In this document: piece after piece, positions 3,785 through 36,625 of the stretch
Position numbering within the stretch: position 1 is the stretch's first letter
Layout: each line of letters begins with the position of its first letter
Source: Desulfobacteraceae bacterium Eth-SRB1
GTDB lineage: Bacteria > Desulfobacterota > Desulfobacteria > Desulfobacterales > ETH-SRB1
Assembly: GCA_004193555.1 (NCBI GenBank)
Contig: RPGP01000001.1
Coordinates: 192,114 to 256,113 of the forward strand
DNA length: 64,000 bases
Direction: 5' to 3'
The notes under the pieces: model-generated
What the model was told of the DNA's origin: nothing
Database searches by the model: none
What the model saw: the letters and a program-made list of their open reading frames with translations, nothing else
Program-made: the position numbers and the translations under genes

Positions 3785-3966
3785 AAAAGATGAACGTCCA
3801 ACATCGAACAATGAACGTCCAACATCGAATAATGAAACAAAACACCCAATGAGAAACAAATGTTCAGGGATATTTGGTTGCTGTTTTTCTGACCTCCGAC
3901 CTCTGTTTCTTTGTTTTTCCCATTCGATGTTCAATGTTGGACGTTCGATGTTCGATGTTCATTGTT
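3785..3966. repeat. GAACATC-heptamer palindromic intergenic element (B-type), copy 1
   Basis: The left arm is aaaagatgaacgtccaacatcgaacaatgaacgtccaacatcgaataatg. The right arm is cattcgatgttcaatgttggacgttcgatgttcgatgttcatt. The loop includes a short CCGACCT-type run. Confidence 0.85.
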
Positions 3967-8859: not shown

Positions 8860-8883
8860 TATCTATATTTCCTAAAAATTTTA

Positions 8884-9047
8884 CCACGGAGCTAAAGTAA
8901 CAAAGAAAGTTATAAGTGAGCTAAAGTGCCTAAAGTGAGCTAAAGTTAAGGTATGCGCCTTTGGCGCTGCCAATTCTATATAAAAAATGGAGCAAAGCGA
9001 CTCATTAACTTTAGGCACTTTAGCTCACTTTAGGCACTCGTAACTTT
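8884..9047. repeat. CTAAAGT-type palindromic element (A-type), copy 2
   Basis: The element is near-identical to 659-798 and is the reverse complement of 13461-13640. Confidence 0.85.
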
Positions 9048-9055
9048 TTTACTGT

Positions 9056-11107
9056 TTACCCAATAACACAAAGCACATCGCCCTTTGCAACCGAATCGCC
9101 GGTGCTGAAATTGATCGTCTTGATTGTTCCGGCTACCGGAGACGGAAGGGCATTCTCCATCTTCATGGCCTCCAGAATCACAACAGACTCTCCCTTTTTG
9201 ACTGAATCGCCTATATGTTTTTGATAACTTATAATCATGCCGGGCATGGGCGACGTCAGCGGAGCGCCGTCAGCATCACTTTTTTCCCTAACTGCAGGCG
9301 CAGATTCCTTAACCGGTGGAGTAACGGAAGCGGCTGCCGGTCTGGGCGGCGCAAGAGCTGCAGGCGGCGCAGTAGAGGGAGAAAGTACAGGCGTCAGGGC
9401 TGCGGTCGGTACAGCCGGAACAGATGCTGATGCAGGTCTCTGCCGGACATAGCTCACAACCGGCGATCCTCCAGGCTCTTCCACGCCAACTTCAAAGTAT
9501 TCATCATCTACAAACACGTTAAATGTACGCAGGTTTTCCCCTTTGGGAGGAGCCTCTTTTTCCGCCTTTTCAACAAGCCTGCCGGCAAGAGCCTTTGCAA
9601 TCAGCTCCTGCTCAGCCTTAACATCTTCCAGGCTCTTTGGTTTTACTTCCGGAGGAGGCTCCTCCTTGCCGTATTTCCATTTCAAAAATCTTTTTCCCGT
9701 AACAGGATAAAGAGCGTATATAAGGACATCGTCCAGATCCACCGCAAGGCCCTTCACATCCTCTCTGGCCTTTTCCAGCTCAGGCTCCAGGACTTCGGCA
9801 GGCCTGCATGTAATCGGGTTCTCCCCCCTTGAATAACTTTTCAGGACTTTTCCCCTGACCTTTGGATTAATGGGAACAGGGGTTTTTCCATACAGTCCGT
9901 AGCACAGATCTTTTACCTGGTCCGTAATCATCCTGTATTGCTCATTTTCATCATCAAAAAGAACATTGTTAACTGTCTGAACCCCGACGATCTGGCTTGT
10001 GGGCGTTACGAGAGGAACCTGTCCAAGATCTTTTCTTACTTTCGGCAGCTCTGCATATACATCATTTAGCCTGTCCAGGGCATCCATTTCACGCAACTGG
10101 TTAACCAGATTTGAAAGCATTCCCCCGGGAGTCTGGTGGAGAAGCACATTGATATCGATTATTGACATTTTTTTGTCGTCCAGCAGATGCCGGTATTTGG
10201 GAAGCACATCCCTTTCAAGAATCTCGCTTATGGCTCCCAGGAGCTTGATGTCAAATCCGGTATCCCTGTTTGTTCCAAGAAGCGCCATAACAAACGGTTC
10301 AACCGCGGGATGTGACGTGCGGTATGCATAAGGGGACAGACAGGTGTCAATAATGTCAACGCCCGCTTCTATAGCCTTTAAATGAGCCATACAGGCCATG
10401 CCTGATGTAAAATGACTGTGAAGATGCACAGGAACCGAGACAATATCTTTTAACGCCCTGACAATGGCATATGCATCATAAGGGGCAATAAGACCGGCCA
10501 TATCCTTTATGCAGATGCTGTCCGCTCCCATCTTTTTTAGTTCTTTTGCCTTATTTATATAATAGTCAAGGTTGTAAACATCTCCGCCCATCCGGGGCTC
10601 GGTCATTGAATAACAGATACATCCCTGAAAATGTTTTCCGCATTCTTTTATAACAGGCACAACCGTTTCAAAGTTACGAAAGTCATTCAGCGCATCAAAT
10701 GTCCTGAATACATCGATACCGTTTGCGGCCGCTCGATCGACAAAGGCACGGGCAACGTCATCAGCATAATTCCTGTAGCCAACAAGATTTTGCGCTCTTA
10801 GAAGCATGGCAAAAGGGGTCTTCTTTAAATATCTTTTTAAAGTCCTTATCCTTTGCCAGGGGTCTTCATTCAAAAAACGGTGCATTGTATCAAATGTTGC
10901 GCCTCCCCATGTTTCCACAGCCCAGAATCCGACCTCGTCCATCATCTCTGCAACAGAAATCATGTCTTCAGTACGCCCCCTTGTGGCAAACAAAGACTGA
11001 TGACCGTCACGCAAGGACAAATCCATTACCCTAAGAGGGTTTTTTGCCTTAGGCCTGTCTTTGCTGTAATCCATTTTTGTGATCTCTACCTTATTATGGT
11101 CGCTCAT
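9056..11107 (-). CDS. methylmalonyl-CoA:pyruvate transcarboxylase 5S-type subunit (oxaloacetate decarboxylase alpha-like) fused to a biotin carboxyl carrier domain
   Basis: An HMGL-like/PYC_OADA N-terminus (RDGHQS) is followed by a Pro/Ala-rich linker. The C-terminal biotinyl domain carries EAMKMEN. Confidence 0.8.
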   Translation of the reverse strand: MSDHNKVEITKMDYSKDRPKAKNPLRVMDLSLRDGHQSLFATRGRTEDMISVAEMMDEVGFWAVETWGGATFDTMHRFLNEDPWQRIRTLKRYLKKTPFAMLLRAQNLVGYRNYADDVARAFVDRAAANGIDVFRTFDALNDFRNFETVVPVIKECGKHFQGCICYSMTEPRMGGDVYNLDYYINKAKELKKMGADSICIKDMAGLIAPYDAYAIVRALKDIVSVPVHLHSHFTSGMACMAHLKAIEAGVDIIDTCLSPYAYRTSHPAVEPFVMALLGTNRDTGFDIKLLGAISEILERDVLPKYRHLLDDKKMSIIDINVLLHQTPGGMLSNLVNQLREMDALDRLNDVYAELPKVRKDLGQVPLVTPTSQIVGVQTVNNVLFDDENEQYRMITDQVKDLCYGLYGKTPVPINPKVRGKVLKSYSRGENPITCRPAEVLEPELEKAREDVKGLAVDLDDVLIYALYPVTGKRFLKWKYGKEEPPPEVKPKSLEDVKAEQELIAKALAGRLVEKAEKEAPPKGENLRTFNVFVDDEYFEVGVEEPGGSPVVSYVRQRPASASVPAVPTAALTPVLSPSTAPPAALAPPRPAAASVTPPVKESAPAVREKSDADGAPLTSPMPGMIISYQKHIGDSVKKGESVVILEAMKMENALPSPVAGTIKTINFSTGDSVAKGDVLCVIG

Positions 11108-11130
11108 CTTATATTTCTCCTTTTAAATAG

Positions 11131-11262
11131 TGCCTAAAGCGCCTAAAATATGTTAAAGTGCCTAAAGTTAAGGTATCGCTTCGCTCTGTTTTTTATATAA
11201 AATTAGCAAAATTCCATAACTTTAGGCACTTTAGCTCACTTTAGGCACTTGTAACTTTGCTT
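11131..11262. repeat. CTAAAGT-type palindromic element (A-type), copy 3
   Basis: The arms are gtgcctaaagcgcctaaaatatgttaaagtgcctaaagttaagg and taactttaggcactttagctcactttaggcac. The core is tcgcttcgctc. Confidence 0.8.
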
Positions 11263-11469
11263 TTGAAAGGTCTTCATCTGCATCAGATTGCGCATCTGCA
11301 TCTGCGCCTGCCTGCCGCTTATACCCCACAGCTTCAACTGAACCTGAGTTGATAAATACGGAGTCTGATTAAAAGCATCGGCAGGCTGATTACATATAAT
11401 CTCTTCCCCTGCCCCGATATAATTTATAACCGCAGATATTGCGGCTGCCATTTTCTTTTTGTTTTCCAT
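11236..11469 (-). CDS. small hypothetical protein between transcarboxylase 5S and 12S genes
   Basis: This is a 77-aa ORF in operon position. Its last 6 codons and stop lie inside the A-type repeat arm. No family was recognised with confidence. Confidence 0.35.
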   Translation of the reverse strand: MENKKKMAAAISAVINYIGAGEEIICNQPADAFNQTPYLSTQVQLKLWGISGRQAQMQMRNLMQMKTFQKQSYKCLK

Positions 11470-11485
11470 CTTGAGTGCTCTTTTA

Positions 11486-11883
11486 AGTTACAAATGACTA
11501 AAGTGACTACTGTAAGTGCCTAAAGTGAGCTAAAGTATATTAAAGTGCCTAAAGTTGTGGTACGCCTTCGGCGTGTTAATTTTAAAGTTATAAGCGCCTA
11601 AGGTAATGTAGTGAACTACTGGCTATCTTTACTTCGATTTCTACAAAACTTTGACAGTCTCGTAAAAAGTCGAAAAATACCGTTTTTCGTCATTCCGGTA
11701 AAAACCGGAATCCAGTCTTTTCAAGTAGTTACAGAACATCTGGACTCCGGTTTTCACCGGAGTGACGACTTTTTACGAGTTCATCAACTTTAGCTCACTT
11801 GCAGTTTTCAAATAAGCAGCGCCGAAGGCGCATTCCTTAACTTTAGGCACTTTAATATACTTTAGGCACTTTAGCTCACTAAA
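11486..11883. repeat. composite A-type element: 4HB-gene deletion derivative with a nested TIR element
   Basis: The left arm and 5' region match 24696-24770. Bases 11607-11655 match the last ~50 nt of the 4HB gene at 25085-25134. The right arm matches 25176-25222. Confidence 0.8.
11659..11779. repeat. nested small element with 14-bp terminal inverted repeats CTCGTAAAAAGTCG / CGACTTTTTACGAG
   Basis: The 14-bp TIRs are perfect. Internal hairpins are attccggtaaaaaccggaat and ctccggttttcaccggag. Related ends occur at 22755-22880, 55026-55158 and 55925-55950. Confidence 0.7.
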
Positions 11884-13437
11884 TTACACCGGTATATTTC
11901 CATGTTTTTTAGGAGGTCTGGTCTCCCGCTTGCCGCACATTATTTCGAGGGCATCGATTAAACGGGATCTCGTTTCTGCCGGCACAATCACGGCATCAAT
12001 ATAGCCCCTGCTTGCCGCGCAATAGGGGTTTGAAAAAAGATCCTCATACTCTTTGATTTTTTCTTTGCGCATAGCGTCAGAATTTTCGGCCGCCTTAATC
12101 ACTCTACGATGGATGATATTAGCCGCGCCGCCGGCTCCCATTACCGCGATCTGAGCGCTTGGCCACGCAAATGCCATATCAGCGCCGAGATGCTTTGAAG
12201 ACATTGCAATATAAGCGCCTCCGTAATCCTTGCGGGTAATAAGAAGCATTTTCGGAACCGTAGCTTCTGAATAACACCAGAGAAGTTTTGCGCCGTGCCG
12301 TATAATCCCTCCCCATTCCTGATGGCTCCCTGGAAGATAACCCGGGACATCGGCTATAGTCAGTATCGGGATGTTAAAGGAATCGCAAAAACGTATAAAC
12401 CGGGTAGCTTTGTCCGAAGCATCAATATCAAGACATCCCGCAAGAAACATGGGCTGGTTTGCGATAATGCCGATGGTTCTCCCGTTCAGCCTGGCAAAAC
12501 AAACAATTATATTCCTGGCATAATGCTCATGCGGCTCAAAAAATTCTCCATTGTCAACTATCGATCTTATCACATCAGTCATGTCATATGGCTGGTTCGG
12601 ATTGTCAGGAATAATTGAATTAAGAGCGAAATCTGTCCGCCCGCTAACATCACCTGTATCCTCAACAGGCGGATCCTCCATGTTGTTTGACGGCAGATAT
12701 GAAAGCAGTTTTTTTATTTTATTTATAGCATCTTCATCGTTTTCACCCGCAAAATGGGCAACCCCGCTTTTTTCGTTGTGCGCCATGGCTCCGCCGAGAT
12801 CCTCAAATGTAATTTCCTCTCCTGTAACAGACTTTATAACCTCAGGGCCGGTAATAAACATATAACTGCTGTTTTTTACCATAAAAACAAAATCCGTCAT
12901 GGCCGGTGAATAAACTGCTCCGCCGGCTGTGGGCCCCATTATCGCCGATATCTGGGGAATAACGCCCGAACAGGCTGAATTACGAAAAAAAATCTCCCCG
13001 TATCCGGAAAGGGAATCAATCCCTTCCTGTATTCTGGCTCCTCCGGAATCATTAATCCCGACAAAAGGCACGCCTGCCTTTAGGGCTAAATCCATAACCT
13101 TACAGATCTTTTTAGCCTGCATTTCACCAAGGCTGCCCGCCCTGGATGTAAAATCCTGTGAAAAGGCAAAAACAGGCCTTCCGTCAACAAGACCATGGCC
13201 TGTTATCACGCCGTCGGATGGAATCTCAACCTTTTCCATACCGAAATTTACGCATCTGTGCGCAACAAACATATCGATTTCCCGGAATGTATCAGAATCG
13301 AATAAATGATTTAATCTTTCCCTTGCGGTCAATTTTCCTTTTTCATGCTGCTTTGCAACCAGCTTTTCGCCGCCCATCTGCATGATTTTCTTTTCCCGCT
13401 TTTTCAAATCCTTTATTCCATCTTCCACAATACCCAT
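11884..13437 (-). CDS. methylmalonyl-CoA carboxyltransferase 12S subunit / propionyl-CoA carboxylase beta-type
   Basis: The 517-aa ORF belongs to the carboxyl transferase family, with motifs GGARIQEG and ITRKDYGGAY. Confidence 0.85.
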   Translation of the reverse strand: MGIVEDGIKDLKKREKKIMQMGGEKLVAKQHEKGKLTARERLNHLFDSDTFREIDMFVAHRCVNFGMEKVEIPSDGVITGHGLVDGRPVFAFSQDFTSRAGSLGEMQAKKICKVMDLALKAGVPFVGINDSGGARIQEGIDSLSGYGEIFFRNSACSGVIPQISAIMGPTAGGAVYSPAMTDFVFMVKNSSYMFITGPEVIKSVTGEEITFEDLGGAMAHNEKSGVAHFAGENDEDAINKIKKLLSYLPSNNMEDPPVEDTGDVSGRTDFALNSIIPDNPNQPYDMTDVIRSIVDNGEFFEPHEHYARNIIVCFARLNGRTIGIIANQPMFLAGCLDIDASDKATRFIRFCDSFNIPILTIADVPGYLPGSHQEWGGIIRHGAKLLWCYSEATVPKMLLITRKDYGGAYIAMSSKHLGADMAFAWPSAQIAVMGAGGAANIIHRRVIKAAENSDAMRKEKIKEYEDLFSNPYCAASRGYIDAVIVPAETRSRLIDALEIMCGKRETRPPKKHGNIPV

Positions 13438-13460
13438 TGTTATTTCCTTTCGTTAAGCAA

Positions 13461-13640
13461 GTTACGAGTGCCTAAAGTGAGCTAAAGTGCCTAAAGTTAA
13501 TGAGTCGCTTTGCTCCATCTTTTATATAGAATTGGCAGCGCCAAAGGCGCATACCTTAACTTTAGCTCACTTTAGGCACTTTAGCTCACTTGTAACTTTT
13601 TTTGTTACTTTAGCTTACTTTAAATCTCTGTGTTCTCCGT
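13461..13640. repeat. CTAAAGT-type palindromic element (A-type), copy in inverse orientation
   Basis: The element is the reverse complement of the 8884-9047 element, including the outer ccacgg...gttac flank. Confidence 0.85.
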
Positions 13641-13642
13641 GG

Positions 13643-14617
13643 TTAATAAAGTTCAAGCAGCCTACATGCCGCATTTATGGGCGCAATCAACCCTTTTTCA
13701 ACAGCCCTTTTCATTTCCGGCAACTCTCTTTTAACATCAGTGTTGTTATAAAACCGTTGTTTAAGCCCTTCTTCAAGCAGAGACCACATCCAGTCAACAG
13801 CCTGTCTCTTCCTCTTTGCCTCTAACTCTCCCGTAGCGGCGAGCTTTTCCATGTGAAGTAATATGGTCTTCCATATCTCATCTATGCCTCTCATTTCAAG
13901 TGCGCTGCAGGTTAAAACAGGAGGCGTCCATGTCGGAGATGAAGGTATCAAAAAATGCAGGGCAGATTCAACCTCTTTTCTCGCTTTTTCAGCCTTTTCA
14001 ATATTGTCGCCGTCAGCCTTGTTTATGGCAACAGCATCGGCCAGCTCTGAAATCCCCTTTTTCATTCCCTGGATTTCATCACCGGCTCCGGCCAGCATAA
14101 GAACCAAAAAAAAATCGACCATGGAGGCCACGGCGGTCTCAGACTGGCCTACCCCGACTGTCTCAACAATAATTACATCAAAACCGGAGGCTTCGCACAC
14201 AAGTATTGTTTCCCTGGTTTTTCCTGCAACCCCTCCCAGGGTGCCGCCCGAAGGAGAAGGCCGTATAAACGCCCTTTCCTCAACAGAAAGCTTTTCCATG
14301 CGGGTTTTGTCTGCCAGGATACTCCCCCCGCTCCTCTGGCTGCTTGGATCAACTGCAAGAACCGCCACACGATGCTCCCTGTTCACAAGCGTCATGCCAA
14401 GGTTCTCAATAAATGTACTCTTACCAGCGCCCGGAACCCCTGTAATGCCAAGCCGAACACCTTTTCCCGTGTATGAAAGCAGCTCATCAACAATTATCCG
14501 CGCCAGATCCTGATGGGCCGGAAGGGAGCTTTCAATCAGCGTAATGGTCTTTGCAAGCGCCAGCCTGTCATGCTCCAGCACACCCTGGATATAATATTGA
14601 TAATTATCCGCAATCAT
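13643..14617 (-). CDS. meaB: methylmalonyl-CoA mutase-associated GTPase MeaB (ArgK family)
   Basis: The P-loop GVPGAGKST and motifs ETVGVGQSE and NKAD are present. The gene is adjacent to the mutase. Confidence 0.85.
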   Translation of the reverse strand: MIADNYQYYIQGVLEHDRLALAKTITLIESSLPAHQDLARIIVDELLSYTGKGVRLGITGVPGAGKSTFIENLGMTLVNREHRVAVLAVDPSSQRSGGSILADKTRMEKLSVEERAFIRPSPSGGTLGGVAGKTRETILVCEASGFDVIIVETVGVGQSETAVASMVDFFLVLMLAGAGDEIQGMKKGISELADAVAINKADGDNIEKAEKARKEVESALHFLIPSSPTWTPPVLTCSALEMRGIDEIWKTILLHMEKLAATGELEAKRKRQAVDWMWSLLEEGLKQRFYNNTDVKRELPEMKRAVEKGLIAPINAACRLLELY

Positions 14618-14656
14618 TTTTTAGTATTTAGATTTAATCCTTACAAAGTTGTTTTG

Positions 14657-14795
14657 AAAGATGAACGTCCAACATCGAACATTGAACGTCGAACATCGAA
14701 TAATGATGTCGCTCCGCTCCGCCAGTTTATAAATTAGCAGAATACCTTATTCAACATTCGATGTTGGACGTTCGATGTTCGACGTTCATCTTTTT
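14657..14795. repeat. GAACATC-heptamer palindromic element (B-type), copy 2
   Basis: Arms built of gaacgtc/caacatc/gaacatt units flank the core aataatgatgtcgctccgctccgccagtttataaatt. The right end supplies the mutase stop codon. Confidence 0.85.
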
Positions 14796-16906
14796 TCTAA
14801 AGCCTTCAGTGTCTTATTCGCCGATTCGGTAATAACCGTGCCGGGCCCAAATATGCCTGCCACGCCTGCTTTATAGAGAAAATCATAATCCGCGGGCGGT
14901 ATTACTCCTCCAACAAACACAATAATATCCCCGCCGCCTTTCTTTCTTAACGCGTCTATAAGCTGCGGAACAAGAATCTTGTGCCCCGCGGCAAGACTCG
15001 ACACACCAACGGCATGCACATCGTTTTCAACAGCCATATTGGCGGCTTCCTCCGGAGTCTGAAACATGGGGCTGATATCTACATCAAATCCAAAGTCAGC
15101 ATACGCTGTGGCGACAACTTTAATACCACGATCATGACCGTCCTGCCCCATCTTTGTCATAAGTATCCTCGGCCTTCTCCCCTCCTTTTCCATAAAGGCC
15201 TCAGTCCTCTTCCTGAGGGAAGCGATTATCTCGCTGTCTCCATATTCAGCAGAATAAACACCGGATATACACCGGCTTACAGCCACATACCTTCCAAAAA
15301 CCTTTTCCATGGCATCTGTGATTTCTCCAACGGTTGCCCTTGCTCTAACTGCAGGGATGCATACTTCGAGAAGATTTCCTCCTGATTCAGCACATTTCGT
15401 AACGGCCTCAAGAACCTTTTTCACAGCAGCGGAACCACGTTTTGCCCTGATCTCTTTTAATCTTACAATCTGCTCATCACGGACAGAATCTGAAACCTCT
15501 AAAACATCAAGCCGGGCTTCTTCTTCTATACGGTATTTATTTACACCAACAATAACATCCCTGCCCTGGTCTATCCTTGCCTGCTTTATGGCTGCGGACT
15601 CTTCAATTCTCAGCTTCGGCATGCCGGATTCAATAGCCCTGGCCATGCCGCCAAGCTCTTCAACCTCTTTCATGATCTTTTTCGACTCCCTGATTATTCC
15701 ATTGGTCAGGGCTTCAATATAATATGAGCCTCCAAGAGGATCCACAACATGACATATCTGGGATTCGTCCTGAACTATTAACTGTGTATTCCTGGCGATC
15801 CTCGCTGACAATTCGGTTGGAAGCCCAACAGCTTCGTCAAAAGAGTTTGTATGAAGAGACTGGGTTCCTCCAAGGGTAGCGGACAGGCATTCAAGGGTGG
15901 TTCGTATTATATTATTATAAGGGTCCTGCTGGGCGAGACTCCAGCCGGATGTCTGGCAGTGGGTTCTTAACATGAGCGATTTGGGATTTTTAGGTTCAAA
16001 CCTGCTTATTATCTCAGACCACAAAAAACGGGCTGCCCTTAACATGGCTATTTCCATGAAAAAATTCATTCCTATCCCGAAGAAAAAGGAAAGGCGCGGA
16101 GCAAAAGTGTCGATATCAAGCCCTGCATCAAGCGCTGCTCTGACATATTCCAGCCCGTCGGCAAGAGTAAATGCTGTCTGAAGAACAGAATTTGCTCCTG
16201 CCTCCATCATATGATAACCGCTTATACTTACGGTGTTGTATTTAGGCATATTTTTTGAGCAAAAACCTATGATATCGGAGACTATCCTCATGGACGGTTT
16301 TGGAGGATAAATATAGGTATTTCTTGTAAGATATTCCTTTAATATATCGTTCTGTATCGTGCCCATGAGCTTATCCTGGGGCACACCCTGCTCCTCGGCC
16401 GCGACTATATATCCGGCAAGCACAGGCAAAACAGCGCCGTTCATGGTCATGGAAACAGACATCTTGTCCAGCGGTATTCTGTCAAAAAGGATCTTCATAT
16501 CCTCCACAGAGTCAATTGCCACTCCTGCCTTGCCGATATCGCCAACAACCCTTGGATGATCCGAATCATAACCCCTGTGAGTAGCCAGATCAAAGGCCAC
16601 TGAAAGTCCTTTCTGACCTGCGGCAAGGTTCTTTCTATAAAATTCGTTAGACTCCTTTGCCGTGGAAAAACCTGCATACTGACGAATAGTCCATGGACGG
16701 CCGGCATACATAGTGGCTTTCACCCCGCGAACATACGGAGCAAACCCGGGAAATGTATTCACGCATTCAAGCCCTTCCAGATCTTCGGCAGTATAAAGCG
16801 GCTTTACATTTATCCCTTCCGGAGTCATCCAGTTCAGTGAGTCAAGAGGTTTCCCCCTCAACTCCTTTTCCGCTAATTCAATCCATTTATTTTTATCAGG
16901 ATGCAT
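14786..16906 (-). CDS. methylmalonyl-CoA mutase, catalytic domain fused to B12-binding domain
   Basis: Mutase large-subunit motifs and a C-terminal GQDGHDRG cobalamin-binding motif are present. The start is moved to MHPDKNKW at 16906 because the upstream 18 codons are repeat-arm sequence. Confidence 0.9.
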
Positions 16907-16938
16907 AGCTATAATATATTTCCTTTTACAAGGTCGTT

Positions 16939-17080
16939 TAAAAAGATGAACGTCCAACATTGAACATCGAACATCGAACGTCGAATAATGATGTCGCTCC
17001 GCTCCGCCAGTTTATAAATTGGCAAAATACCTTATTCAACATTCGATGTTGGACGTTCGATGTTCGATGTTCATTTTTTT
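16939..17080. repeat. GAACATC-heptamer palindromic element (B-type), copy 3
   Basis: The element is about 90 percent identical by eye to 14657-14795, including the core. Confidence 0.85.
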
Positions 17081-17123
17081 CTGTCCCTCAATCCCTTAAC
17101 ACTTAGCACCTAACACCTAATCC

Positions 17124-17525
17124 CTATCTTTCACACAATTCAACCAGAACCCCGTTTGTCGATTTAGGGTGCAGAAAAGCTATTTTTGCGCCCCCCGCGC
17201 CCTTCCTCGGCTTTTCATCAACAAGCCTTATCCCTTTCTCCTTTAATTCCGCCAGCGCCTCTTCGATATTTTCCACAAGAAAGGCAACGTGATGTATCCC
17301 CTCCCCCCTCTTTTCCAGATATTTTCCGATAGGCCCATCAGGGTCGGTAGATTCAAGCAGCTCGATCTCACTTTCTCCAATCGGGAAAAAAGCTGTAATA
17401 AGCTTTTCATCCGCCATTACTTCACTGTCTTCAAGCCAGAGCCCTAAACGGTCTCCCCAGAATTTTTTTCCTTTATTGATGCTATTTACTGCAATCCCTA
17501 AATGATCAATTTTTATTACCTTCAT
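17124..17525 (-). CDS. mce: methylmalonyl-CoA epimerase (VOC/glyoxalase family)
   Basis: The ORF has IDHLGIAV and GIHHVAF motifs. The start is set at MKVIKIDH because upstream codons are repeat sequence. Confidence 0.8.
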   Translation of the reverse strand: MKVIKIDHLGIAVNSINKGKKFWGDRLGLWLEDSEVMADEKLITAFFPIGESEIELLESTDPDGPIGKYLEKRGEGIHHVAFLVENIEEALAELKEKGIRLVDEKPRKGAGGAKIAFLHPKSTNGVLVELCER

Positions 17526-17548
17526 GAAATCTCCTTTTAAAAGGTTCA

Positions 17549-17689
17549 AACTAAAGTGCCTAAAGTGAGCTAAAGTGCCTAAAATGCCTAAAGTTAAGGA
17601 GTCGCTCCGCTCCGGTTGTTTCCAAATTGAGGAGCGAAGCGACAACAACATTCATCATTCGATGTTGGACGTTCGATGTTCATCTTTTT
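17549..17689. repeat. chimeric element: CTAAAGT arm + GCTYCGCT core hairpin + GAACATC arm
   Basis: The left arm is A-type and the right arm is B-type. The central 13-bp stem is gtcgctccgctcc/ggagcgaagcgac. The element is the reverse complement of 23045-23178. Confidence 0.85.
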
Positions 17690-17719
17690 CAATCCCCTAA
17701 TCCTCTAATCCTCTAATCC

Positions 17720-17761
17720 AACACCTAACACTTAACACCTAACACTTAACACCTAACACTT
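17720..17761. repeat. 6 x heptamer array AACACCT/AACACTT
   Basis: Two heptamers alternate perfectly. The array is preceded by TAATCCTC octamers and abuts the aminotransferase stop codon. Confidence 0.85.
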
Positions 17762-18945
17762 CATCCCCTATACTTATCCATTGCCTTTTTAAACCCCGGC
17801 ATAGAATTAATTATAGTTTCATCATCCACGCAGAAAGCGATCCTAAAGTGTCCGGGCGCGCCAAAACCGCTTCCCGGCACAACAAGTATCAATTCTTCCT
17901 GAAGCGTCTTTACAAATTCAACATCATCAGGAATCGGAGTCCTGGGAAAAAGATAGAAAGCTCCCGGAGGCCTGAGAAACTCATATCCGCTGTCTGCAAG
18001 GCCATTGCATAAAAGATCCCTTTTCCTTGCATATTCGGAAACATCCACGCTCATCCCCTGTATGGATGCCACAACCCGCTGCATAAGGGCAGGGGCGTTT
18101 ACAAACCCTAAAATCCTGTTGGCAAGGGCCATGCCCCCTAAAAGATTCTCCTTAAAGGAAGCGTCCGGGTTAACCGCAATAAATCCTATGCGCTCTCCTG
18201 GAATCGAAATATCCTTGGAATATGAAGTGGCGATTATGCTTTCATTATAGCAGGAAAATATACTTGGCACTTTAAGCCCGTCATATACTATCTTCCGGTA
18301 CGGCTCATCTGAAATCATATAGATTGTCCTGCCGGAACTGTTGCTCCTGTCTTTTAAAAGAGCGCCAAGTTCATTGAGGCTCTCTTTTGAATATACCTGG
18401 CCTGTGGGATTGTTCGGCGAATTTATCAGGACAGCCTTGGTTTTTTCAGTAATTGCGGATGAAATAGCGTCAATATTCAGGGAAAAATCGGGTTTTGTCG
18501 AAACAGTCTTTAATACACCGCCATGATTGTCTGCATAAAAACTGTATTCTACAAAATAGGGAGCAGGAGTTATAACCTCATCTCCAGGATCAAGTATAGC
18601 CTTCAGTATAACATTAAGGCCTCCTGCCGCTCCGCATGTCATGATAATCTCATTTTCAGAAATTCGCGCCTGCTGCTCCGCGGAAAGATAATCCGCCACA
18701 GATTTGCGTACATGCGGATAACCGGTATTCGGCATATAAGCATGGTTTCTGTCTCCGGATGCGGATGCAGCCTCTATAAGAGCTTTCCTGAACTCTTCCG
18801 GAGGCTTCAAGTTCGGATTGCCCAGGCTGAAGTCAAAAACATTATCCGCCCCATGCTCTGCCTTAAGCCGCGCCCCATCTTCAAACATCTTCCGGATCCA
18901 GGATGCCCTTGACATCATTGTTTCAATCTTTTTCGCTATTGTCAT
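17761..18945 (-). CDS. pyridoxal phosphate-dependent aminotransferase (class I/II, aspartate/alanine type)
   Basis: The ORF has NPNNPTG and SYSKD motifs. The start is at MTIAKK, preceded by GGAGG; upstream codons are repeat-derived. Confidence 0.8.
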   Translation of the reverse strand: MTIAKKIETMMSRASWIRKMFEDGARLKAEHGADNVFDFSLGNPNLKPPEEFRKALIEAASASGDRNHAYMPNTGYPHVRKSVADYLSAEQQARISENEIIMTCGAAGGLNVILKAILDPGDEVITPAPYFVEYSFYADNHGGVLKTVSTKPDFSLNIDAISSAITEKTKAVLINSPNNPTGQVYSKESLNELGALLKDRSNSSGRTIYMISDEPYRKIVYDGLKVPSIFSCYNESIIATSYSKDISIPGERIGFIAVNPDASFKENLLGGMALANRILGFVNAPALMQRVVASIQGMSVDVSEYARKRDLLCNGLADSGYEFLRPPGAFYLFPRTPIPDDVEFVKTLQEELILVVPGSGFGAPGHFRIAFCVDDETIINSMPGFKKAMDKYRG

Positions 18946-19004
18946 ATTTAACAAACCTCCATGTTCACGGTTTTCCGACTTCCGACCTCCGACCTCTAAT
19001 CCCT

Positions 19005-19229
19005 TCACGCCTGTTCCACAGATTTTACCTCCGGTATCTCCTGTTTCAGCAATCTTTCTATTCCGTTTTTAAGGGTCATCTGCGACATGGGGCATCCGGC
19101 GCATGCGCCCTGCAGGCGCACAGTAACCACTCCGTCTTTATAATCGATCAGCTCCACATCGCCTCCGTCTGCCTGGAGCATCGGCCTGATTTTGTTGATT
19201 ATTTCCTGAATTTTTTCCTTCACAATCAA
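19005..19229 (-). CDS. NifU-like Fe-S cluster assembly domain protein
   Basis: The 74-aa ORF has the GGDVEL and CxGCP (ACAGCPMS) motifs of the NifU C-terminal domain. Confidence 0.8.
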   Translation of the reverse strand: MIVKEKIQEIINKIRPMLQADGGDVELIDYKDGVVTVRLQGACAGCPMSQMTLKNGIERLLKQEIPEVKSVEQA

Positions 19230-19247
19230 ATTCCTCCTTATTTTTTT

Positions 19248-19333
19248 ACCACTGAGATCACAGAGAACACAGAGAATTTTCTTTTTGTTTTTTTATATAT
19301 TATCCCTCTGTGGTCTCTGTGGGCTCTGTGGTT
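19248..19333. repeat. CACAGAG 9-mer hairpin
   Basis: accactgagatcacagagaacacagagaa pairs with ccctctgtggtctctgtgggctctgtggt. The hairpin ends on the tgt stop codon. Confidence 0.8.
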
Positions 19334-20453
19334 AATCCTTCTTTTTAGCGGCTAAACTGTTATAAAATTTCTCTCTGAACACCTCAAACTTATCATCAAT
19401 TATTGCCTTTCGCATATTCTTCATCAAGCCGACATAATAGTTTATATTATGAATTGTATTTAAACGATAGGCAAGCAGTTCTTTTGACATATAAAGGTGG
19501 CGCAGATAAGCCTTGGAATAATTTCTGCACGTATAACATGTACACCCCTGCTCCACAGGCTCTTTATCATACTTGAACCGTGAATTAGATATGTTTATCG
19601 TGCCGCAGCTTGTAAACAACTGCCCGTTCCTGGCATTTCTGGTGGGCATAACACAATCAAACATGTCTGCGCCAAGGGCAACAAGCTCGACAATATCCTC
19701 AGGAGTTCCCACGCCCATGATGTATTTGGGCTTATTATCAGGCAGCTCAGGCAGCGTAAAATCCGCAATATCAAGCATTATATCTTTTGGTTCGCCCACG
19801 CTCAACCCGCCGATTGCATAGCCGCTGAAACCGATGTCAACGAGAGCTTCAACAGACATCTCCCTTAGATCCTTGAACATCCCACCCTGAACAATACCGA
19901 AAAGAGCGGATTTTGAACCATTATCCCATGCTGTTTTACATTTTTCAGCCCAGCTTGTGGTAAGTTTAAGGGCGTACATTGCTTCATCTCTGCTTGACGG
20001 ATATGCAATGCAATTATCGAGGCACATCATTATATCAGAACCGAGACAGTTTTGTATTTCAACCGCCTTTTCAGGTGTCAGCAAATGGCTCGATCCATCG
20101 ATATGAGATTGAAATGAAACCCCCTCGGGAGATATTTTCGCAAGCTTTGCAAGGGAAAATATCTGAAATCCGCCGCTATCCGTCAGAATTGGCCTGTTCC
20201 AGTTCATAAATCTGTGCAAGCCGGAAAAGAGGCTTATCACATCGCAACCCGGCCTTAAGTACAAATGGTATGTATTCCCCAAAATTATACTGGCTCCGGC
20301 GCCCGCAAGCTCTTCCGGAGACACCGATTTCACGCTTGCAAGAGTGCCCACAGGCATAAACACAGGTGTTTCAATCACACCGTGAGAAGTCTGCAACAGC
20401 CCCGCCCGGGCTCTTGTCTTTTTAGATTTTGCTGTTATCTTAAAATTGAACAT
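19332..20453 (-). CDS. tgt: tRNA-guanine transglycosylase
   Basis: The ORF has TPVFMPVGT and DSGGFQ motifs and the zinc site CxCxxC...H. The start is set at MFNFKI. Confidence 0.9.
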   Translation of the reverse strand: MFNFKITAKSKKTRARAGLLQTSHGVIETPVFMPVGTLASVKSVSPEELAGAGASIILGNTYHLYLRPGCDVISLFSGLHRFMNWNRPILTDSGGFQIFSLAKLAKISPEGVSFQSHIDGSSHLLTPEKAVEIQNCLGSDIMMCLDNCIAYPSSRDEAMYALKLTTSWAEKCKTAWDNGSKSALFGIVQGGMFKDLREMSVEALVDIGFSGYAIGGLSVGEPKDIMLDIADFTLPELPDNKPKYIMGVGTPEDIVELVALGADMFDCVMPTRNARNGQLFTSCGTINISNSRFKYDKEPVEQGCTCYTCRNYSKAYLRHLYMSKELLAYRLNTIHNINYYVGLMKNMRKAIIDDKFEVFREKFYNSLAAKKKD

Positions 20454-20557
20454 GTTTAAATAATTTGGTTCACGGTTCAAGGTTCACGGTTCTCCAACTT
20501 CTAAACCCTGAACCCACAGTTACATAAACTTGACCATTATCTGAATAACGAAGATAT

Positions 20558-20685
20558 TAAAAGATGAACGTCCAACATCGAACATCGAATAATGAAATCG
20601 CTTCGCTCCGCCGGTTTATAAATTGGCAGAATACCTTATTCAAAATTCGACGTTGGACGTTCGATGTTCGATGTTTATTTTTTTC
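20558..20685. repeat. GAACATC-heptamer palindromic element (B-type), copy 4
   Basis: The core is aataatgaaatcgcttcgctccgccggtttataaatt. The element is followed by the shared module cagcgctactgctggg...gctacgatcc, also present at 22441-22490. Confidence 0.85.
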
Positions 20686-20776
20686 AGCGCTACTGCTGGG
20701 AACAGAGCCCCCACGCTACGATCCCTAATCCTCAAATCCCTTAATCCCCTAACACCTGACACTTAACACCTAACAC

Positions 20777-21838
20777 TTATATTATAACCATCGCATCCCC
20801 ATAACTGTAAAACCTGTACCTTTCCTTTATCGCCTCTTTGTATGCATTCAGAATACTTTCCCGTCCGGCAAAAGCCGATACAAGCATCAGCAGGGTTGAT
20901 TCAGGTAAATGAAAATTTGTAACCATTGCGTCTATAACTTTAAACCTGTAGCCGGGATATATAAAAAGATCGCAGTGTCCACCACCGGAAGCAATATGTC
21001 CGTTTTTATCCGATGCATACTCCAGAGTTCGCACACATGTTGTCCCTACAGCCACTATTCGGCTTCCCCGCTCTTTTGCAGTGTTGATTAACTCTGCGCT
21101 TTTCTTAGAAATATGAAACTGCTCGGAATGAATCATGTGATCCCTGATATCGCTCTCCCTTACAGGCAAAAAGGTGCCATATCCTACATGGAGGGTAATT
21201 TCTGCTGTCTTGACTCCAACACCCTTTATTTTTTCAATAAGACTTTCAGAAAAATGGAGACCTGCCGTAGGCGCCGCAATCGCCCCTTTTTCACTGGCAT
21301 ATACTGTCTGGTAAGACCTCTTGTCATCGCAGGCAGAGCCTTTGCCGTTTCTTTTAATATAAGGCGGAAGCGGCACATTCCCTATCCTGTAAAGCAGGGT
21401 TTCAAAATCTCCATCATATAAAAACCTTACATTAAAATATCCATTTCTAACTTCGAGCACTTCGGCTTTTAATCCCTGATCAAAAAAAAGCAGCGCTCCT
21501 GGTTTCGGACGTTTTGAAGCCTTTATAAGACATTCACATATAAATTCGCCGTTAGCCTCCCTTTTTACAGCGCCTCCGGCATAGTCAAGAATAAGGAGTT
21601 CCACCTTTCCGCCGGTTTCCTTGTTTCCAAAAAGACGTCCGGGGATAACCTCCGTATTGTTTATAACCAGTATGTCCGACGGCCGCAAAAGGTCGGAAAT
21701 TTCATAAAATAAATGATGGGACACTTCTCCTGTCCTGCGGCGCAAAAACAACAGCCTCGACCGGTCTCTCTGGTCTGCCGGCTTTTGAGCAATAAACTCT
21801 TCAGGAAAATCGTAGTTATAGTCAATAAGTGAGTACAT
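20777..21838 (-). CDS. queA: S-adenosylmethionine:tRNA ribosyltransferase-isomerase
   Basis: The ORF has DYNYDFPEEFIAQKP, PLPPYI and GTT.VRTLE motifs. The start is set at MYSLIDY; upstream codons are repeat arm. Confidence 0.9.
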   Translation of the reverse strand: MYSLIDYNYDFPEEFIAQKPADQRDRSRLLFLRRRTGEVSHHLFYEISDLLRPSDILVINNTEVIPGRLFGNKETGGKVELLILDYAGGAVKREANGEFICECLIKASKRPKPGALLFFDQGLKAEVLEVRNGYFNVRFLYDGDFETLLYRIGNVPLPPYIKRNGKGSACDDKRSYQTVYASEKGAIAAPTAGLHFSESLIEKIKGVGVKTAEITLHVGYGTFLPVRESDIRDHMIHSEQFHISKKSAELINTAKERGSRIVAVGTTCVRTLEYASDKNGHIASGGGHCDLFIYPGYRFKVIDAMVTNFHLPESTLLMLVSAFAGRESILNAYKEAIKERYRFYSYGDAMVII

Positions 21839-21845
21839 AATATTT

Positions 21846-22437
21846 AAAAGATGAACGTCCAACATCGAACATTGAACATCCAACATCGAATAATGCTATC
21901 GCTTCGCTCCTCAATTTATTTCTGTTTCTTTTCAGCCGTTCTGATACTCGTAACGAAAATCTTAATTAATTCCTCTGTTTCCTGTAAAATATCATCTAAT
22001 AGTTCAGGTTTTTTAATTAAAGGCACACGCTGAATAAGTTTTAACCATCGCTGGCTCTCCCTGAGTTCCTTTAATGAGATACGAAGCTTATGGATAAAGT
22101 CCTTTGGGGACTCCGCTGCCTGAGCTTCACCATGGTTTGGATAAGGTGAAGTTCCCGATCTTAACAATTGGCCAGCAACATGGTTGCCTGTTCTGGTATT
22201 TGGCATCTGTTCAACGATCTTTATTATTCGCACCGAATACTCGAGCAGCCTTTCTTCCAGATCATATGTTTGTTTCTTCATCTTTTCCCATTCAACGTTC
22301 GATGCTCATCCATTTGGATTGTTGATTGATGATTTTCTCGTTCCCACGCTCTTGCGTGTGAATTCATATTTGAAGGAGCGAAGCGACATCATCATTCAAA
22401 ATTCGATGTTGGACGTTCGATGTTCGATGTTCATTTT
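21846..22437. mobile_element. B-type hairpin element carrying a four-helix-bundle gene in its loop
   Basis: The left arm is 21846-21894 plus core tcgcttcgctcctc. The right arm is 22371-22437 (gaaggagcgaagcgac plus cgatgttggacgttcgatgttcgatgttcat). ORF 21916-22281 lies between them. Confidence 0.7.
21916..22281 (-). CDS. four helix bundle protein (23S rRNA intervening sequence protein family)
   Basis: The 121-aa ORF has motifs LLRSGTS, KDFIHKLRISLKELRE and W characteristic of the TIGR02436/PF05635 family. Confidence 0.85.
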   Translation of the reverse strand: MKKQTYDLEERLLEYSVRIIKIVEQMPNTRTGNHVAGQLLRSGTSPYPNHGEAQAAESPKDFIHKLRISLKELRESQRWLKLIQRVPLIKKPELLDDILQETEELIKIFVTSIRTAEKKQK

Positions 22438-22496
22438 TTTCAGCGCTACTGCTGGGGACAGAGCCCCCGTGCTACGATCCTTAATTCCCTAATCCC

Positions 22497-22682
22497 TCAA
22501 TCCCTTCCCAAATATATCAGCGCTAAGCCTGTAAGCATAAGCACAAAACCGAACCAGCGGAGAGAGCTGTCCGGTATTTCAAGAACCTTTTGCACCCAGA
22601 ATTTCATCTTTTCCGGAAATGCAAAATACGGCAGCCCCTCAACTATCATCACCATTCCAAGTACACACAAGAAAAATTCCAT
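22497..22682 (-). CDS. DUF2065-like small membrane protein
   Basis: The 61-aa ORF has two TM segments and an EGLPYFAFP motif. Confidence 0.6.
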   Translation of the reverse strand: MEFFLCVLGMVMIVEGLPYFAFPEKMKFWVQKVLEIPDSSLRWFGFVLMLTGLALIYLGRD

Positions 22683-22960
22683 TTAATTCCTCTTTTTTAT
22701 CACGAAAACACGAAAGTACGAAAACACGAAGAAAAGCATAAAAAAGTATGATGAACCCGTAAAAAGTCATTCCAGAACCGCATCAAGCCCCACCCCTTCC
22801 CTTTCCTCTTCGTGGCCTTCGTGTTCTTCGTGGTACAACACACTCTGTGGTAAAAAATCGACTTTATACGAAACCGTCAAAATTTTATTTTATAAACTTA
22901 TGCACCCTGTTTTGTCAAAACAAAATGGCTTGACTATGCGCCGCATTAAGATATAAATTG

Positions 22961-23040
22961 TTCAGGAGTTCAGGAGTTCAGGAGTTCAGGAGTTCAGGAG
23001 TTCAGGAGTTCAGGGGTTCAGGGGTTCAGGGGTTCAGGGG
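22961..23040. repeat. 10-unit octamer tandem array (6 x TTCAGGAG then 4 x TTCAGGGG)
   Basis: A direct count gives 80 nt with period 8. Confidence 0.9.
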
Positions 23041-23044
23041 ACTG

Positions 23045-23178
23045 AAAAAGATGAACATCGAACGTCCAACATCGAATGATGAATGTTGTTGTCGCTTCGC
23101 TCCTCAATTTGGAAACAAACTGAGCGAAGCGACTCATTAACTTTAGGCACTTTAGCTCACTTTAGGCACTTTTTAACT
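23045..23178. repeat. chimeric element: GAACATC arm + GCTTCGCT core hairpin + CTAAAGT arm
   Basis: The first ~78 nt are identical to the reverse complement of 17549-17689. The core stem is gtcgcttcgctc/gagcgaagcgac. Confidence 0.85.
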
Positions 23179-23264: not shown

Positions 23265-24695
23265 ATGGAATTTGAATCTGTTATAGGGCTTGAAATACAT
23301 GCCCAGCTAAAGACAAAAACAAAAATCTTCTGCGGCTGTTCAACAAAATTCGGAGCCCCTCCCAATACCCATACCTGTCCGGTATGTCTTGGCATGCCCG
23401 GGGTGCTCCCTGTGCTCAACAAAAAGGTTGTTGAATACAGTTTGCGCATGGCGCTTGCCACAAATTGCAAAATCAACAGGCAAAGCAGATTTGCCAGGAA
23501 AAACTACTTTTATCCTGACCTTCCAAAAGGGTACCAGATCTCCCAGTATGAACTGCCGATTGCGGAAAACGGGCATGTCGATATTGAAATCAACAGCCAT
23601 AAAAAAAGGATCGGAATCACAAGAATTCACATGGAAGAGGATGCAGGCAAACTGACTCACAATCCTGACAGGCCGCTTAGTATGGTCGATTTCAACAGGA
23701 CAGGGGTTCCTCTTATTGAGATAGTCAGCGAGCCGGATCTAAGATCCCCTGAAGAAGCCGGGGCATACTTAAGGCAGCTCAGGTCGATTGTTCGTTATCT
23801 CAGTATATGCGACGGCAACATGGAGGAGGGAAGCTTCAGGTGCGATGCAAACGTATCGATCAGGCCGATTGGCTCTGAAACTTTCGGCACGCGCGCAGAG
23901 CTTAAAAATTTAAATTCCTTTAAACATGTTGAAAAGGCGCTGCAATACGAAATAACAAGGCAAAAAGAAATTTTATCTGACGGCGGTGAGGTAATCCAGG
24001 AAACAAGGCTATGGAGCCCTGATAAAAACAGGACGACTTCAATGCGATCAAAGGAGGAGGCGCACGATTACAGGTATTTTCCAGACCCTGATCTTTTGCC
24101 TCTTGTAATTGACGATACATGGATTAATAATGTAAAAAAAAGCCTGCCCGAACTGCCGGATGAAAGAAAAATCCGTTTTATAAACAAATTTTTCCTTTCT
24201 TCAAACGACGCCGAAGCATTGACATCCAGCCGGGAGCTTGCAGAATATTTTGAGGAATGTGTAAAACAATTTCCGAATCCAAAACAGGTTTGCAACTGGG
24301 TCATGGGGGAGCTGCTCGGACTATTGAATGCAGAAGAAAAAACCATAAATGAATCCCCGGTTTCAACCGGCGATCTTGCCGGGCTGCTCAAATTAATCGA
24401 CAAAGGGGTCATAAGCGGCAAAATCGCAAAAACGGTATTTGAAGAAATGGCAAAAACAGGCCGTGCCCCTGAAAAGATTGTAAAGGAAAAACAGCTTGTA
24501 CAGGTCACGGACGTATCTGCCATTGAAGAGGTGGTATCAAAGATACTTTCAAACAACCCCAAAGAGGTGGAGGCTTACAAAAACGGCAAAACCAAACTTA
24601 TGGGTTTCTTCGTCGGCCAGGTTATGAAAGAAACAAGGGGCAAGGCCAATCCGAAGATCGTGAATGAAGTCCTGAAAAAGAGGCTGATAAATTAA
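23265..24695 (+). CDS. gatB: Asp-tRNA(Asn)/Glu-tRNA(Gln) amidotransferase subunit B
   Basis: The N-terminus is [15 protein letters not shown] and the [10 protein letters not shown] motif is present. The ORF is full length at 476 aa. Confidence 0.95.
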
Positions 24696-29760: not shown

Positions 29761-29895
29761 GAGATTTTTTGCAAGGTCAAGGAAGGCGAAGATTTTAACC
29801 GCAGGAATACATTGAGTATTTTGAGGATTAAAATCTGAACCTGACGCAGAGATTGCGCAAAATAGCCATTCTCGGATAGCCTCCAAGGGCGATGC

Positions 29896-36067: not shown

Positions 36068-36117
36068 CACTTAGGTCTCGGCAAAAAAATACGCAAAAGT
36101 TATCTCGTCCCCGTTCC

Positions 36118-36410: not shown

Positions 36411-36547
36411 TAAAAGATGAACGTCGAACATCGAACGTTCAACATCGAATTTTGAATAAGGAATTCTACCAATTTATAAACTGGCGGAGCGAAGCGATTT
36501 CATCATTCGATGTTCAATGTTCGACGTTCGATATTCGATGTTCAAAA
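36411..36547. repeat. GAACATC-heptamer palindromic element (B-type) with core in inverse orientation
   Basis: The core aatttataaactggcggagcgaagcgatttc is the reverse complement of the B2/B3 core. Confidence 0.8.
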
Positions 36548-36625
36548 GAATTTTCACTCTACCGCTCCCACTTGGCAACCTATTGATAAAATTAATCATA
36601 AAATGGAAATTTCTATACTATCAAG

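Follow-up and report, generated by a model that had tools for sequence, protein, structure and literature searches.

A composite repeat in the methylmalonyl-CoA operon

We analyzed a palindromic repeat located at positions 11485-11879 of a 64,000-nucleotide stretch of the genome of Desulfobacteraceae bacterium Eth-SRB1 (hereafter the window). The repeat occupies the intergenic spacer between a carboxyltransferase gene and a gene encoding a 77-residue protein (SRB1_00195, 100% identical), in a methylmalonyl-CoA operon comprising genes for succinyl-CoA ligase, a biotin carboxyl-carrier/5S subunit, a small subunit, the carboxyltransferase, MeaB, a mutase, and an epimerase-like protein. It belongs to a family of repeats, designated P, whose arms consist of two to four tandem GTG(N1-2)CTAAAGT units, with GC hairpins on their inner side. 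Between its arms, this copy harbors a fragment of an open reading frame (ORF) of the PF05635/TIGR02436 family and an unrelated inverted-repeat element; it is referred to below as the composite copy. Its parts are the following (L numbers designate related loci).

11485-11555, left arm: AAGTTACAA at the start, then four xCTAAAGT units, ATGACTAAAGT (11494-11504), GTGCCTAAAGT (11516-11526), GTGAGCTAAAGT (11525-11536), and GTGCCTAAAGT (11545-11555), identified by motif enrichment and blastn
11556-11604, leader module: GC hairpin GTACGCCTTCGGCGTG, then TTAATTTTAAAGTTATAAG and the degenerate unit GCGCCTAAGGT; 92.5% identity to 24735-24771
11605-11651, plus strand, ORF stub: last 15 codons (CSELLAIFTSISTKL) of a PF05635/TIGR02436 gene, stop codon absent
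11652-11786, nested N-family element of 135 bp: TGACAGTCTCGTAAAAAGTCG ... CGACTTTTTACGAGTTCATCA, flanked by ACTT at 11648-11651 and 11787-11790
11787-11798, inner right-arm unit: ACTTTAGCTCAC, holding the original ...CTT TAG stop of the ORF once the nested element is removed
11799-11839, right inner module: GC hairpin GCGCCGAAGGCGC (11819-11831), mirroring that of the leader; L039, L094, and L030 have matching right halves
11840-11879, right arm: ACTTTAGGCAC at 11840-11850 and 11859-11869, ACTTTAGCTCAC at 11868-11879; 33 of 33 nucleotides identical to 25188-25220

The right half thus comprises the mirror GC hairpin and three reverse units, and it ends 4 nucleotides from the carboxyltransferase stop codon. 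The arm motif GTGCCTAAAGT, with one mismatch allowed, was found 33 times in the window versus 0.8 times expected. The continuation of the leader is shared with the gene-less copies L039 and L094, within a subfamily that comprises L094, L039, L030, and L026.

The composite copy retains the 3' end of a PF05635 gene

An intact relative of the composite copy is present in the same window:

24696-25220, plus strand, gene-carrying P element: arms 24696-24734 and 25177-25220, leader 24735-24780, ORF 24781-25134 (117 amino acids), trailer 25135-25176

Local alignment of the composite copy with this element by blastn, a comparison proposed in a preliminary description of the locus, recovered the three matches reported there. 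The left arm and leader (11513-11592) matched 24693-24771 with 92.5% identity over 80 nucleotides (E = 6e-30), and the right arm (11842-11874) matched 25188-25220 with 100% identity over 33 nucleotides. The third match, said to correspond to the last ~50 nucleotides of the ORF ending at 25134, was located at 11605-11655 and aligned without gap to 25085-25135 (45 of 51 nucleotides identical, 88.2%; E = 2.7e-15 in the pairwise comparison). Against the whole window, the E value was 2.9e-13 and the match was the only one. A global MAFFT alignment of both elements misplaced the stub because of the large gap; local blastn was therefore used instead.

All six differences between the stub and the intact ORF are transitions. 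Translation of the stub in the frame of the ORF yields CSELLAIFTSISTKL, the most frequent C-terminus among the 120 closest homologues; homologue P0019 has this very sequence at residues 103-117 (100% identity). The peptide is too short for a family-model score. At the DNA level, the gene nearest to the stub was not the copy at 24781 but the gene of L103-L105 (89.6% identity over 48 nucleotides). Thus, the stub derives from a different paralogue. The presence of an in-frame 3' fragment of a PF05635 gene between shared arms and a shared leader identifies the composite copy as a probable deletion derivative of a gene-carrying palindromic element. On this point the preliminary description was right for this copy, but not for the general rule that it proposed (see below). 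The composite copy demonstrates that the decay of a widespread, gene-carrying palindromic element is one route to gene-less repeats. Since it is unable to encode the four-helix-bundle protein, it is a non-autonomous, MITE-like relic (MITE, miniature inverted-repeat transposable element).

The intact ORF matched PF05635 (E = 8e-21, 74.7 bits for a cut-off of 33.8) and TIGR02436 (E = 2.6e-25, 88.8 bits for a cut-off of 24), that is, the family of 23S ribosomal RNA (rRNA) intervening-sequence or four helix bundle proteins, to which a second ORF of the window (21916-22281) also belongs. The closest solved structure was PDB 2RLD (E = 3.4e-20); Avd was not found in the sequence search of structures. 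An orthologous copy of the intact element is located after gatB in L106 and L107 (L106:933-1443). Relative to these loci, the ORF harbors 4, 3, and 13 changes at the first, second, and third codon positions, respectively, and this concentration at third positions indicates that the ORF is probably under purifying selection. Identity to L106 was 94.4% for the ORF and 94.1% for the arms, versus 76% for the 3' end of gatB and 89% for the 5' end of the FG-GAP gene. The lower divergence of the element in comparison to its flanks suggests conversion between copies or constraint at the nucleotide level. The gene-plus-arm unit was detected in unrelated contexts, between gatB and the FG-GAP gene (window and L106), between genes for a histidine kinase and a response regulator (L103), and after a gene other than gatB (L035).

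A nested element at the original stop codon

At 11659-11672 and 11766-11779, the element nested in the composite copy carries 14-bp inverted repeats without a mismatch, as had been noted in the preliminary description, which accordingly placed a 121-bp element at 11659-11779. Its extent had to be revised. The termini of the N family were defined from 25 copies (window and related loci), and paired copies of the family set its ends as TGACAG...CATCA. The nested element is therefore 135 bp long and extends from 11652 to 11786.

The apparent TGA stop codon of the stub is an accident of insertion, its GA belonging to the nested element and the original TAG being located within the arm unit ACTTTAGCTCAC. 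Excision of 11652-11786 together with one copy of ACTT restores ...TCT ACA AAA CTT TAG CTCAC. The same ending, AAA CTT TAG within the unit, is present in the intact copies L108, L114, L116, L120, L126, and L164. The window contains other N-family copies:

22749-22879, N-family element
~55048-55158, N-family element
55929-55950, N-family element

Another inverted-repeat family, with GGAACGGGGACGA termini, was represented at 36105-36117 (minus strand) and at L030:2562-2856. In L030, the GGAACGGGGACGA-ended element is nested in a P element, with an apparent duplication of TTA.

Gene-carrying and gene-less copies of the P family

A census of the P family was performed on the window and 187 related loci (~1.1 Mb); the sample of gene-less copies is biased toward one leader 31-mer. 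This 31-mer (11545-11575, the last arm unit and the leader hairpin) was found without mismatch in 102 stretches, nearly all short and gene-less, from about a dozen metagenome-assembled genomes of Desulfobacteraceae/Thermodesulfobacteriota; Eth-SRB1 lies outside the species-representative set that was scanned. The census comprised 76 gene-carrying and 116 gene-less P elements. ORF-derived DNA was present in a single gene-less element, the composite copy, and tblastn over the related loci revealed no further P-type stubs. The inner lengths were bimodal, 350-500 nucleotides with the gene and mostly 100-150 nucleotides without it. Intermediate lengths were few, and the one inspected (L030) was explained by a nested insertion.

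These results do not support the general claim of the preliminary description that short intergenic hairpins derive from gene-carrying cassettes, since 115 of the 116 gene-less P copies are devoid of ORF-derived DNA. The graded series of deletion derivatives for which it had called was likewise absent from the ~1.1 Mb, in which lengths were bimodal. Short and intact copies nonetheless share leader and trailer modules, and the gene-less and gene-carrying classes are therefore related.

With a threshold of E ≤ 1e-10, homologues of the gene fell into at least 7,977 sequence clusters, and sub-kilobase contigs carried many of them. Genetic context was analyzed for 80 metagenomic loci encoding 69-81% identical proteins, in addition to L103-L107 and L035, which together provided 75 distinct contexts. 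Forward units within 150 nucleotides upstream of the ORF and reverse units within 150 nucleotides downstream were present in 68 of these 75 contexts. The mean number of units was 1.84 and 1.87 per side; units in the wrong orientation were ~40-fold rarer (0.04-0.05). The neighboring genes varied between gene-plus-arm loci. PF05635 was the only gene type between P arms (76 cases in ~1.1 Mb). No larger cargo or transposase was found between P arms in this sample, save for a 5.6-kb pair (17556-23169) surrounding housekeeping genes. No insertion sequence (IS) with xCTAAAGT-unit ends was detected in the ~1.1 Mb sampled, complete genomes and IS databases being outside the search. The MITE analogy drawn in the preliminary description implied an autonomous parent; the sole gene between the arms encodes a 117-residue four-helix-bundle protein and not a transposase.

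Arms of the same element were only slightly more alike than arms taken from different elements (mean score of 20.3 versus 18.7, p = 0.016), a weak effect that was not used as evidence. Solitary or degenerate P-family half elements were observed at 36617-36663 (minus strand), where the exact 31-nucleotide leader is present without a right arm and an F-family element comes next (see below), and at 50926-50977, a site that is empty in L009 (flanking genes ~9 nucleotides apart). The arm motif GTGCCTAAAGTGAGCTAAAGT (21 nucleotides) was also present in six stretches on five IMG/VR contigs classed as viral (L195-L200); no close relative of the PF05635 gene was found in the IMG/VR collection.

A second arm family carries its own PF05635 subfamily

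The second PF05635 gene of the window is located in an element with different arms, which defines the F family:

21850-22434, minus strand, gene-carrying palindromic element with GAACATCGAAC arm units; ORF 21916-22281

This ORF encodes a paralogue displaying 34% amino acid identity with the first (51.6 bits for the Pfam model and 86.9 bits for the NCBIfam model). The GAACATCGAAC motif was found 34 times in the window versus 0.7 times expected. Gene-less F copies, formed by inverted arrays of tandem 7-nucleotide GAACATC/GAACGTC units, are located as follows:

3799-3960, gene-less F element
14670-14787, gene-less F element, operon spacer
16962-17072, gene-less F element, operon spacer
20573-20676, gene-less F element
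36419-36543, gene-less F element

In three other genomes, every F-type homologue detected is surrounded by F-type arms (4 of 4 loci, including that of the window). Since cognate arms surround both the F-type and the P-type genes, each protein subfamily appears to travel with its own arm family. The F-armed element L032:3901-4154 corresponds to that at 21850-22434 and has lost codons 5 to ~100 of its ORF at a GAACA/GAAACA microhomology, retaining the first 11 and approximately the last 58 nucleotides. It is thus a second, independent deletion derivative.

The GTCGCTTCGCTCC hairpin is present in both P and F elements. Composite ends in mirror image were observed at 17556-17690 and 23050-23172, in inverted orientation and 5.4 kb apart, each combining P-type units, the GTCGCTTCGCTCC hairpin, and F-type units. 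Between them lie an aminotransferase gene, tgt, queA, and the second PF05635 element. The arrangement resembles a single palindromic element whose halves are separated by 5.4 kb of DNA, most of it housekeeping. Short tandem arrays lie beside these ends (22961-23040 and 17702-17760), consisting of 8-nucleotide CCCCTGAA/CTCCTGAA units and of CCTCTAAT plus CTAACAC/CTTAACAC units; similar TAACAC arrays are present at 55065-55130 and in L190. In Eth-SRB2 (L191:1035-2297), a group II intron-type reverse transcriptase (RVT_1 and GIIM domains) is encoded ~700 nucleotides upstream of an F-type PF05635 element; this proximity is probably a coincidence.

Occupied and empty sites

Palindromic repeats occupy all seven of the seven consecutive spacers of the operon (8860-17760), with four P elements, two F elements, and one P/F hybrid. 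In addition to the composite copy (11485-11879) and to the two F elements listed above, the elements are:

8915-9038, gene-less P element, ordinary copy, operon spacer (motif and blastn)
11130-11250, gene-less P element, operon spacer
13467-13591, gene-less P element, operon spacer
17556-17690, P/F hybrid, operon spacer
659-789, gene-less P element, outside these spacers

The end of the 77-residue ORF (...SYKCLK*) and its stop codon are encoded by an arm of the repeat 11130-11250 (11236-11250), so the insertion rewrote the 3' end of that gene. In the relatives L188 to L190, this small gene and the next gene overlap without a spacer.

The spacer orthologous to that of the composite copy is empty in L188, with 5 nucleotides from the stop codon to the ATG, and holds other repeat families in L189 and L190. 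Sites carrying the gene could be compared to empty sites in two other cases, L151 versus L068 and L160 versus L140. One additional orthologous site is gene-carrying in L171, L136, L143, and L165 and gene-less with an unrelated center in L129. Comparison of filled and empty sites revealed no consistent or clean target duplication for the P elements. In L151 (60-680, compared to L068:4800-4990), the element is located between genes whose end and ribosome-binding site overlap. A target of ~15 bp (CACAATTGGAGGTT) is present on both sides, and both the upstream stop codon and the downstream ribosome-binding site are preserved, which suggests a possible ~15-bp duplication that includes the ribosome-binding site. 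What the data establish comes down to two points: the gene and its cognate arms are found together as a unit at numerous unrelated sites, and orthologous sites exist in both a filled and an empty state.

No transposase, integrase, or reverse-transcriptase family match was obtained among the ~50 window ORFs that were scanned. Searches of the window with Rfam revealed no rRNA and no family matching the elements, the sole match being a thiamine pyrophosphate (TPP) riboswitch located elsewhere (RF00059, 70.2 bits, 53690-53781, minus strand), upstream of thiamine-biosynthesis genes. Other features of the window include two near-duplicate ORFs encoding ORF6N domains on either side of an Xre-antitoxin/RES-toxin pair (59298-61662), and a DUF433/PIN-like (DUF5615) pair at 29326-30243.

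Proposed history of the composite copy

Taken as a whole, 11485-11879 is in our judgment probably a three-layer fossil, combining a palindromic P element, the remnant of a PF05635 gene, and a later 135-bp insertion, and representing a MITE-like relic. The first layer would be a palindromic intergenic P element. The second would be a PF05635/TIGR02436 gene filling the center of the element, with its stop codon inside the first right-arm unit, from which an internal deletion would have removed ~300 bp, from the start-codon region to codon 102, leaving the last 15 codons. The third would be a later arrival, an unrelated inverted-repeat element of 135 bp that entered at the former stop codon with an apparent duplication of ACTT. 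The operon transcript would include the resulting relic, which is expected to form a very long hairpin. The RNA corresponding to the operon strand of the composite copy has a predicted folding energy of -168.6 kcal/mol (z = -13.6).

By analogy with other systems, the relic is likely to be a substrate of double-strand RNases or an mRNA stability element, like Correia/nemis elements, REP sequences, and 23S rRNA intervening sequences. PF05635 ORFs are located in inverted-repeat intervening sequences excised by RNase III (PMC4990558), and Correia elements are cleaved within transcripts by the same enzyme (PMC10969869). By extension from RNase III processing in these systems, the relic may act solely as an RNA hairpin in the operon transcript.

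Several observations weigh against this history. The stub is only 47-51 nucleotides long, and its left junction displays no clear microhomology. No relative was found with the full gene at the orthologous spacer, and deletion in situ is therefore indistinguishable from the arrival of an already deleted copy. A 4-bp flanking direct repeat was present in just two of the five paired N-family copies. On the operon strand, the right inner module gave only a weak terminator-like match. Finally, the sequence up to AAGGT is closer to gene-less copies (e.g. L039) than to the intact leader, as judged by eye and not from a computed alignment. This resemblance of the left half to gene-less copies makes a recombinant origin possible.

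Other origins can be envisaged. According to the first, which appears rather unlikely, all short hairpins would be deletion derivatives of autonomous gene-carrying parents, mobilized in trans by the four-helix protein in the manner of the IS/MITE and RAYT/REPIN pairs. Deletion derivatives do exist in two arm families, arms and leader and trailer modules are common to short and gene-carrying copies, PF05635 is the sole gene type between P arms in ~1.1 Mb, and the ORF was proposed in 1993 to be a mobility component, as cited in PMC4990558. The pairing between gene subfamily and arm type (68 of 75 for P, 4 of 4 for F) also fits, but it is explained without any functional link if gene and arms are co-inherited as a unit. 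Moreover, the 115 gene-less copies devoid of ORF-derived DNA have centers unrelated to the ORF, the bimodal lengths do not form a graded series, and the 117-residue helical bundle has no known catalytic domain.

It is quite improbable, although several observations point in that direction, that the short palindromes are primary and captured the gene, interiors being swapped across arms and the stub being the scar of an illegitimate exchange. The same site carries the gene in L171, L136, L143, and L165 and an unrelated center in L129, modules are shuffled between families (the GTCGCTTCGCTCC hairpin in P and F), the left half of the composite copy is nearer by eye to gene-less copies, and the identity of the intact element (94%, versus 76-89% for its flanks) suggests conversion. 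However, shared homology does not reach the left junction of the stub, which calls for an illegitimate event in both scenarios, and the L032 derivative is a plain microhomology deletion. That the stop codon of the gene forms part of an arm unit in many copies speaks for prolonged co-evolution and not for a recent capture.

We consider it very improbable that the stub is a 5'-truncated insertion, generated by abortion of copying from the right (3') end as in target-primed reverse transcription. Both derivatives do retain the 3' 50-60 nucleotides of the ORF, and PF05635 includes Avd, a partner of reverse transcriptase (PMC10053308, PMC6182149). However, both derivatives also retain the full left arm and leader, and L032 the first 11 nucleotides of the ORF in addition, which indicates an internal deletion and not a truncation; no reverse transcriptase was found among the window ORFs scanned.

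A chance match between AT-rich low-complexity repeats, the objection foreseen in the preliminary description, has a negligible probability: the region is repeat-rich and the global alignment missed the stub, but this reading is refuted by the 45 of 51 ungapped identities, the E value of 2.9e-13 for a match unique in the window, the absence of the segment from every other repeat copy, and the 15-residue consensus peptide kept in frame.

Significance

Where bacterial rRNA intervening sequences come from, how they move, and what the very abundant four helix bundle (TIGR02436) proteins do have been questions since the early 1990s. The locus and its relatives provide a testable system, with two arm families harboring their own protein subfamilies, intact, deleted, and gene-less copies, and filled and empty sites. 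Each protein subfamily comprises at least ~7,900 sequence clusters, many of them on sub-kilobase contigs, as expected of assembly-breaking repeats; the elements therefore matter for metagenome assembly and annotation. In the window the elements fill seven spacers in a row within an operon of central carbon metabolism, and they could therefore influence how mRNA is processed in syntrophic sulfate reducers. As a tentative proposal, which we would not rank above a working conjecture, PF05635/TIGR02436 genes with cognate arms could be widespread undescribed selfish elements residing in operon spacers of Desulfobacterota and other sediment bacteria. The protein would be an Avd-related specificity factor that recognizes the arm units of its element, in DNA or RNA form, and recruits host enzymes; the gene-less hairpins, which far outnumber it, would be non-autonomous dependants, and 23S rRNA intervening sequences would be a special case in which such an element has landed in rRNA.

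Comparison with known systems

Integron gene cassettes harbor a single attC after the ORF and form an integrase-adjacent array. In contrast, the elements described here have repeats on both sides of the ORF and are dispersed as single copies between housekeeping genes, and no integrase was found. The Avd proteins of diversity-generating retroelements belong to the same superfamily of small four-helix bundles and bind reverse transcriptase and RNA (PMC10053308, PMC6182149); unlike their genes, the window elements have no reverse transcriptase, template repeat, or variable repeat nearby. REP/REPIN sequences and RAYT genes similarly combine inverted hairpin pairs scattered in intergenic regions with one small gene type flanked by repeats. 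However, the gene encodes here a PF05635 protein instead of a Y1 (IS200/IS605-like) transposase, a domain that was not detected in the window ORFs scanned, and the arms are arrays of tandem units instead of single REP hairpins. Mobile insertion cassettes (MICs; PMC3129680) also consist of inverted repeats surrounding a single non-transposase gene at many unrelated sites. The ends of MICs match the IS family that mobilizes them, whereas no IS of this kind is known for the present elements. In addition, a single passenger family is found with cognate arms in both of two distinct arm families, which is not expected of a random passenger.

MITEs such as Correia/nemis and ERIC (PMC10969869) are small (120-400 bp), intergenic, and multicopy, possess terminal inverted repeats, form RNA hairpins, receive nested insertions, and lie within transcripts, all of which applies to the elements reported here. 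The composite copy itself (~395 bp, with an ORF stub as its only coding content and arms forming inverted repeats) has the small size, non-coding character, multiplicity, and terminal inverted repeats of a MITE. The elements differ from MITEs in that no related IS bearing a transposase was found (~50 window ORFs and P arms in ~1.1 Mb), the only coding relative specifies a non-enzymatic helical protein, and no consistent target-site duplication was found.

The known elements closest to those described here are the intervening sequences of 23S rRNA (Leptospira, Coxiella 'S23p'; PMC4990558), with their PF05635 ORF and terminal inverted repeats. They encode the same PF05635/TIGR02436 protein at the center of the element, have a sporadic distribution suggesting horizontal spread, and exist in versions with and without the ORF, as observed here. 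A stem of terminal inverted repeats surrounds the PF05635 ORF, as in these sequences, in 24696-25220, in 21850-22434, and in 68 of the 75 contexts. Decades ago, intervening sequences were suggested to be of mobile origin and their ORF to contribute to mobility, according to the citation in PMC4990558. Intervening sequences are located in helices 9, 25, or 45, whereas the window copies all lie between protein-coding genes; the arms are here family-specific arrays of short tandem units, and many gene-less copies exist alongside. Neither the transposase-bearing parent of a MITE nor the rRNA location of an intervening sequence was found, in the window ORFs and P arms covered and among the window copies, respectively. 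The literature provided no account of PF05635 genes in palindromic intergenic repeats, in a survey whose incomplete coverage does not amount to proof of novelty. The elements have the appearance of 23S rRNA intervening sequences that have moved into the spacers of operons.

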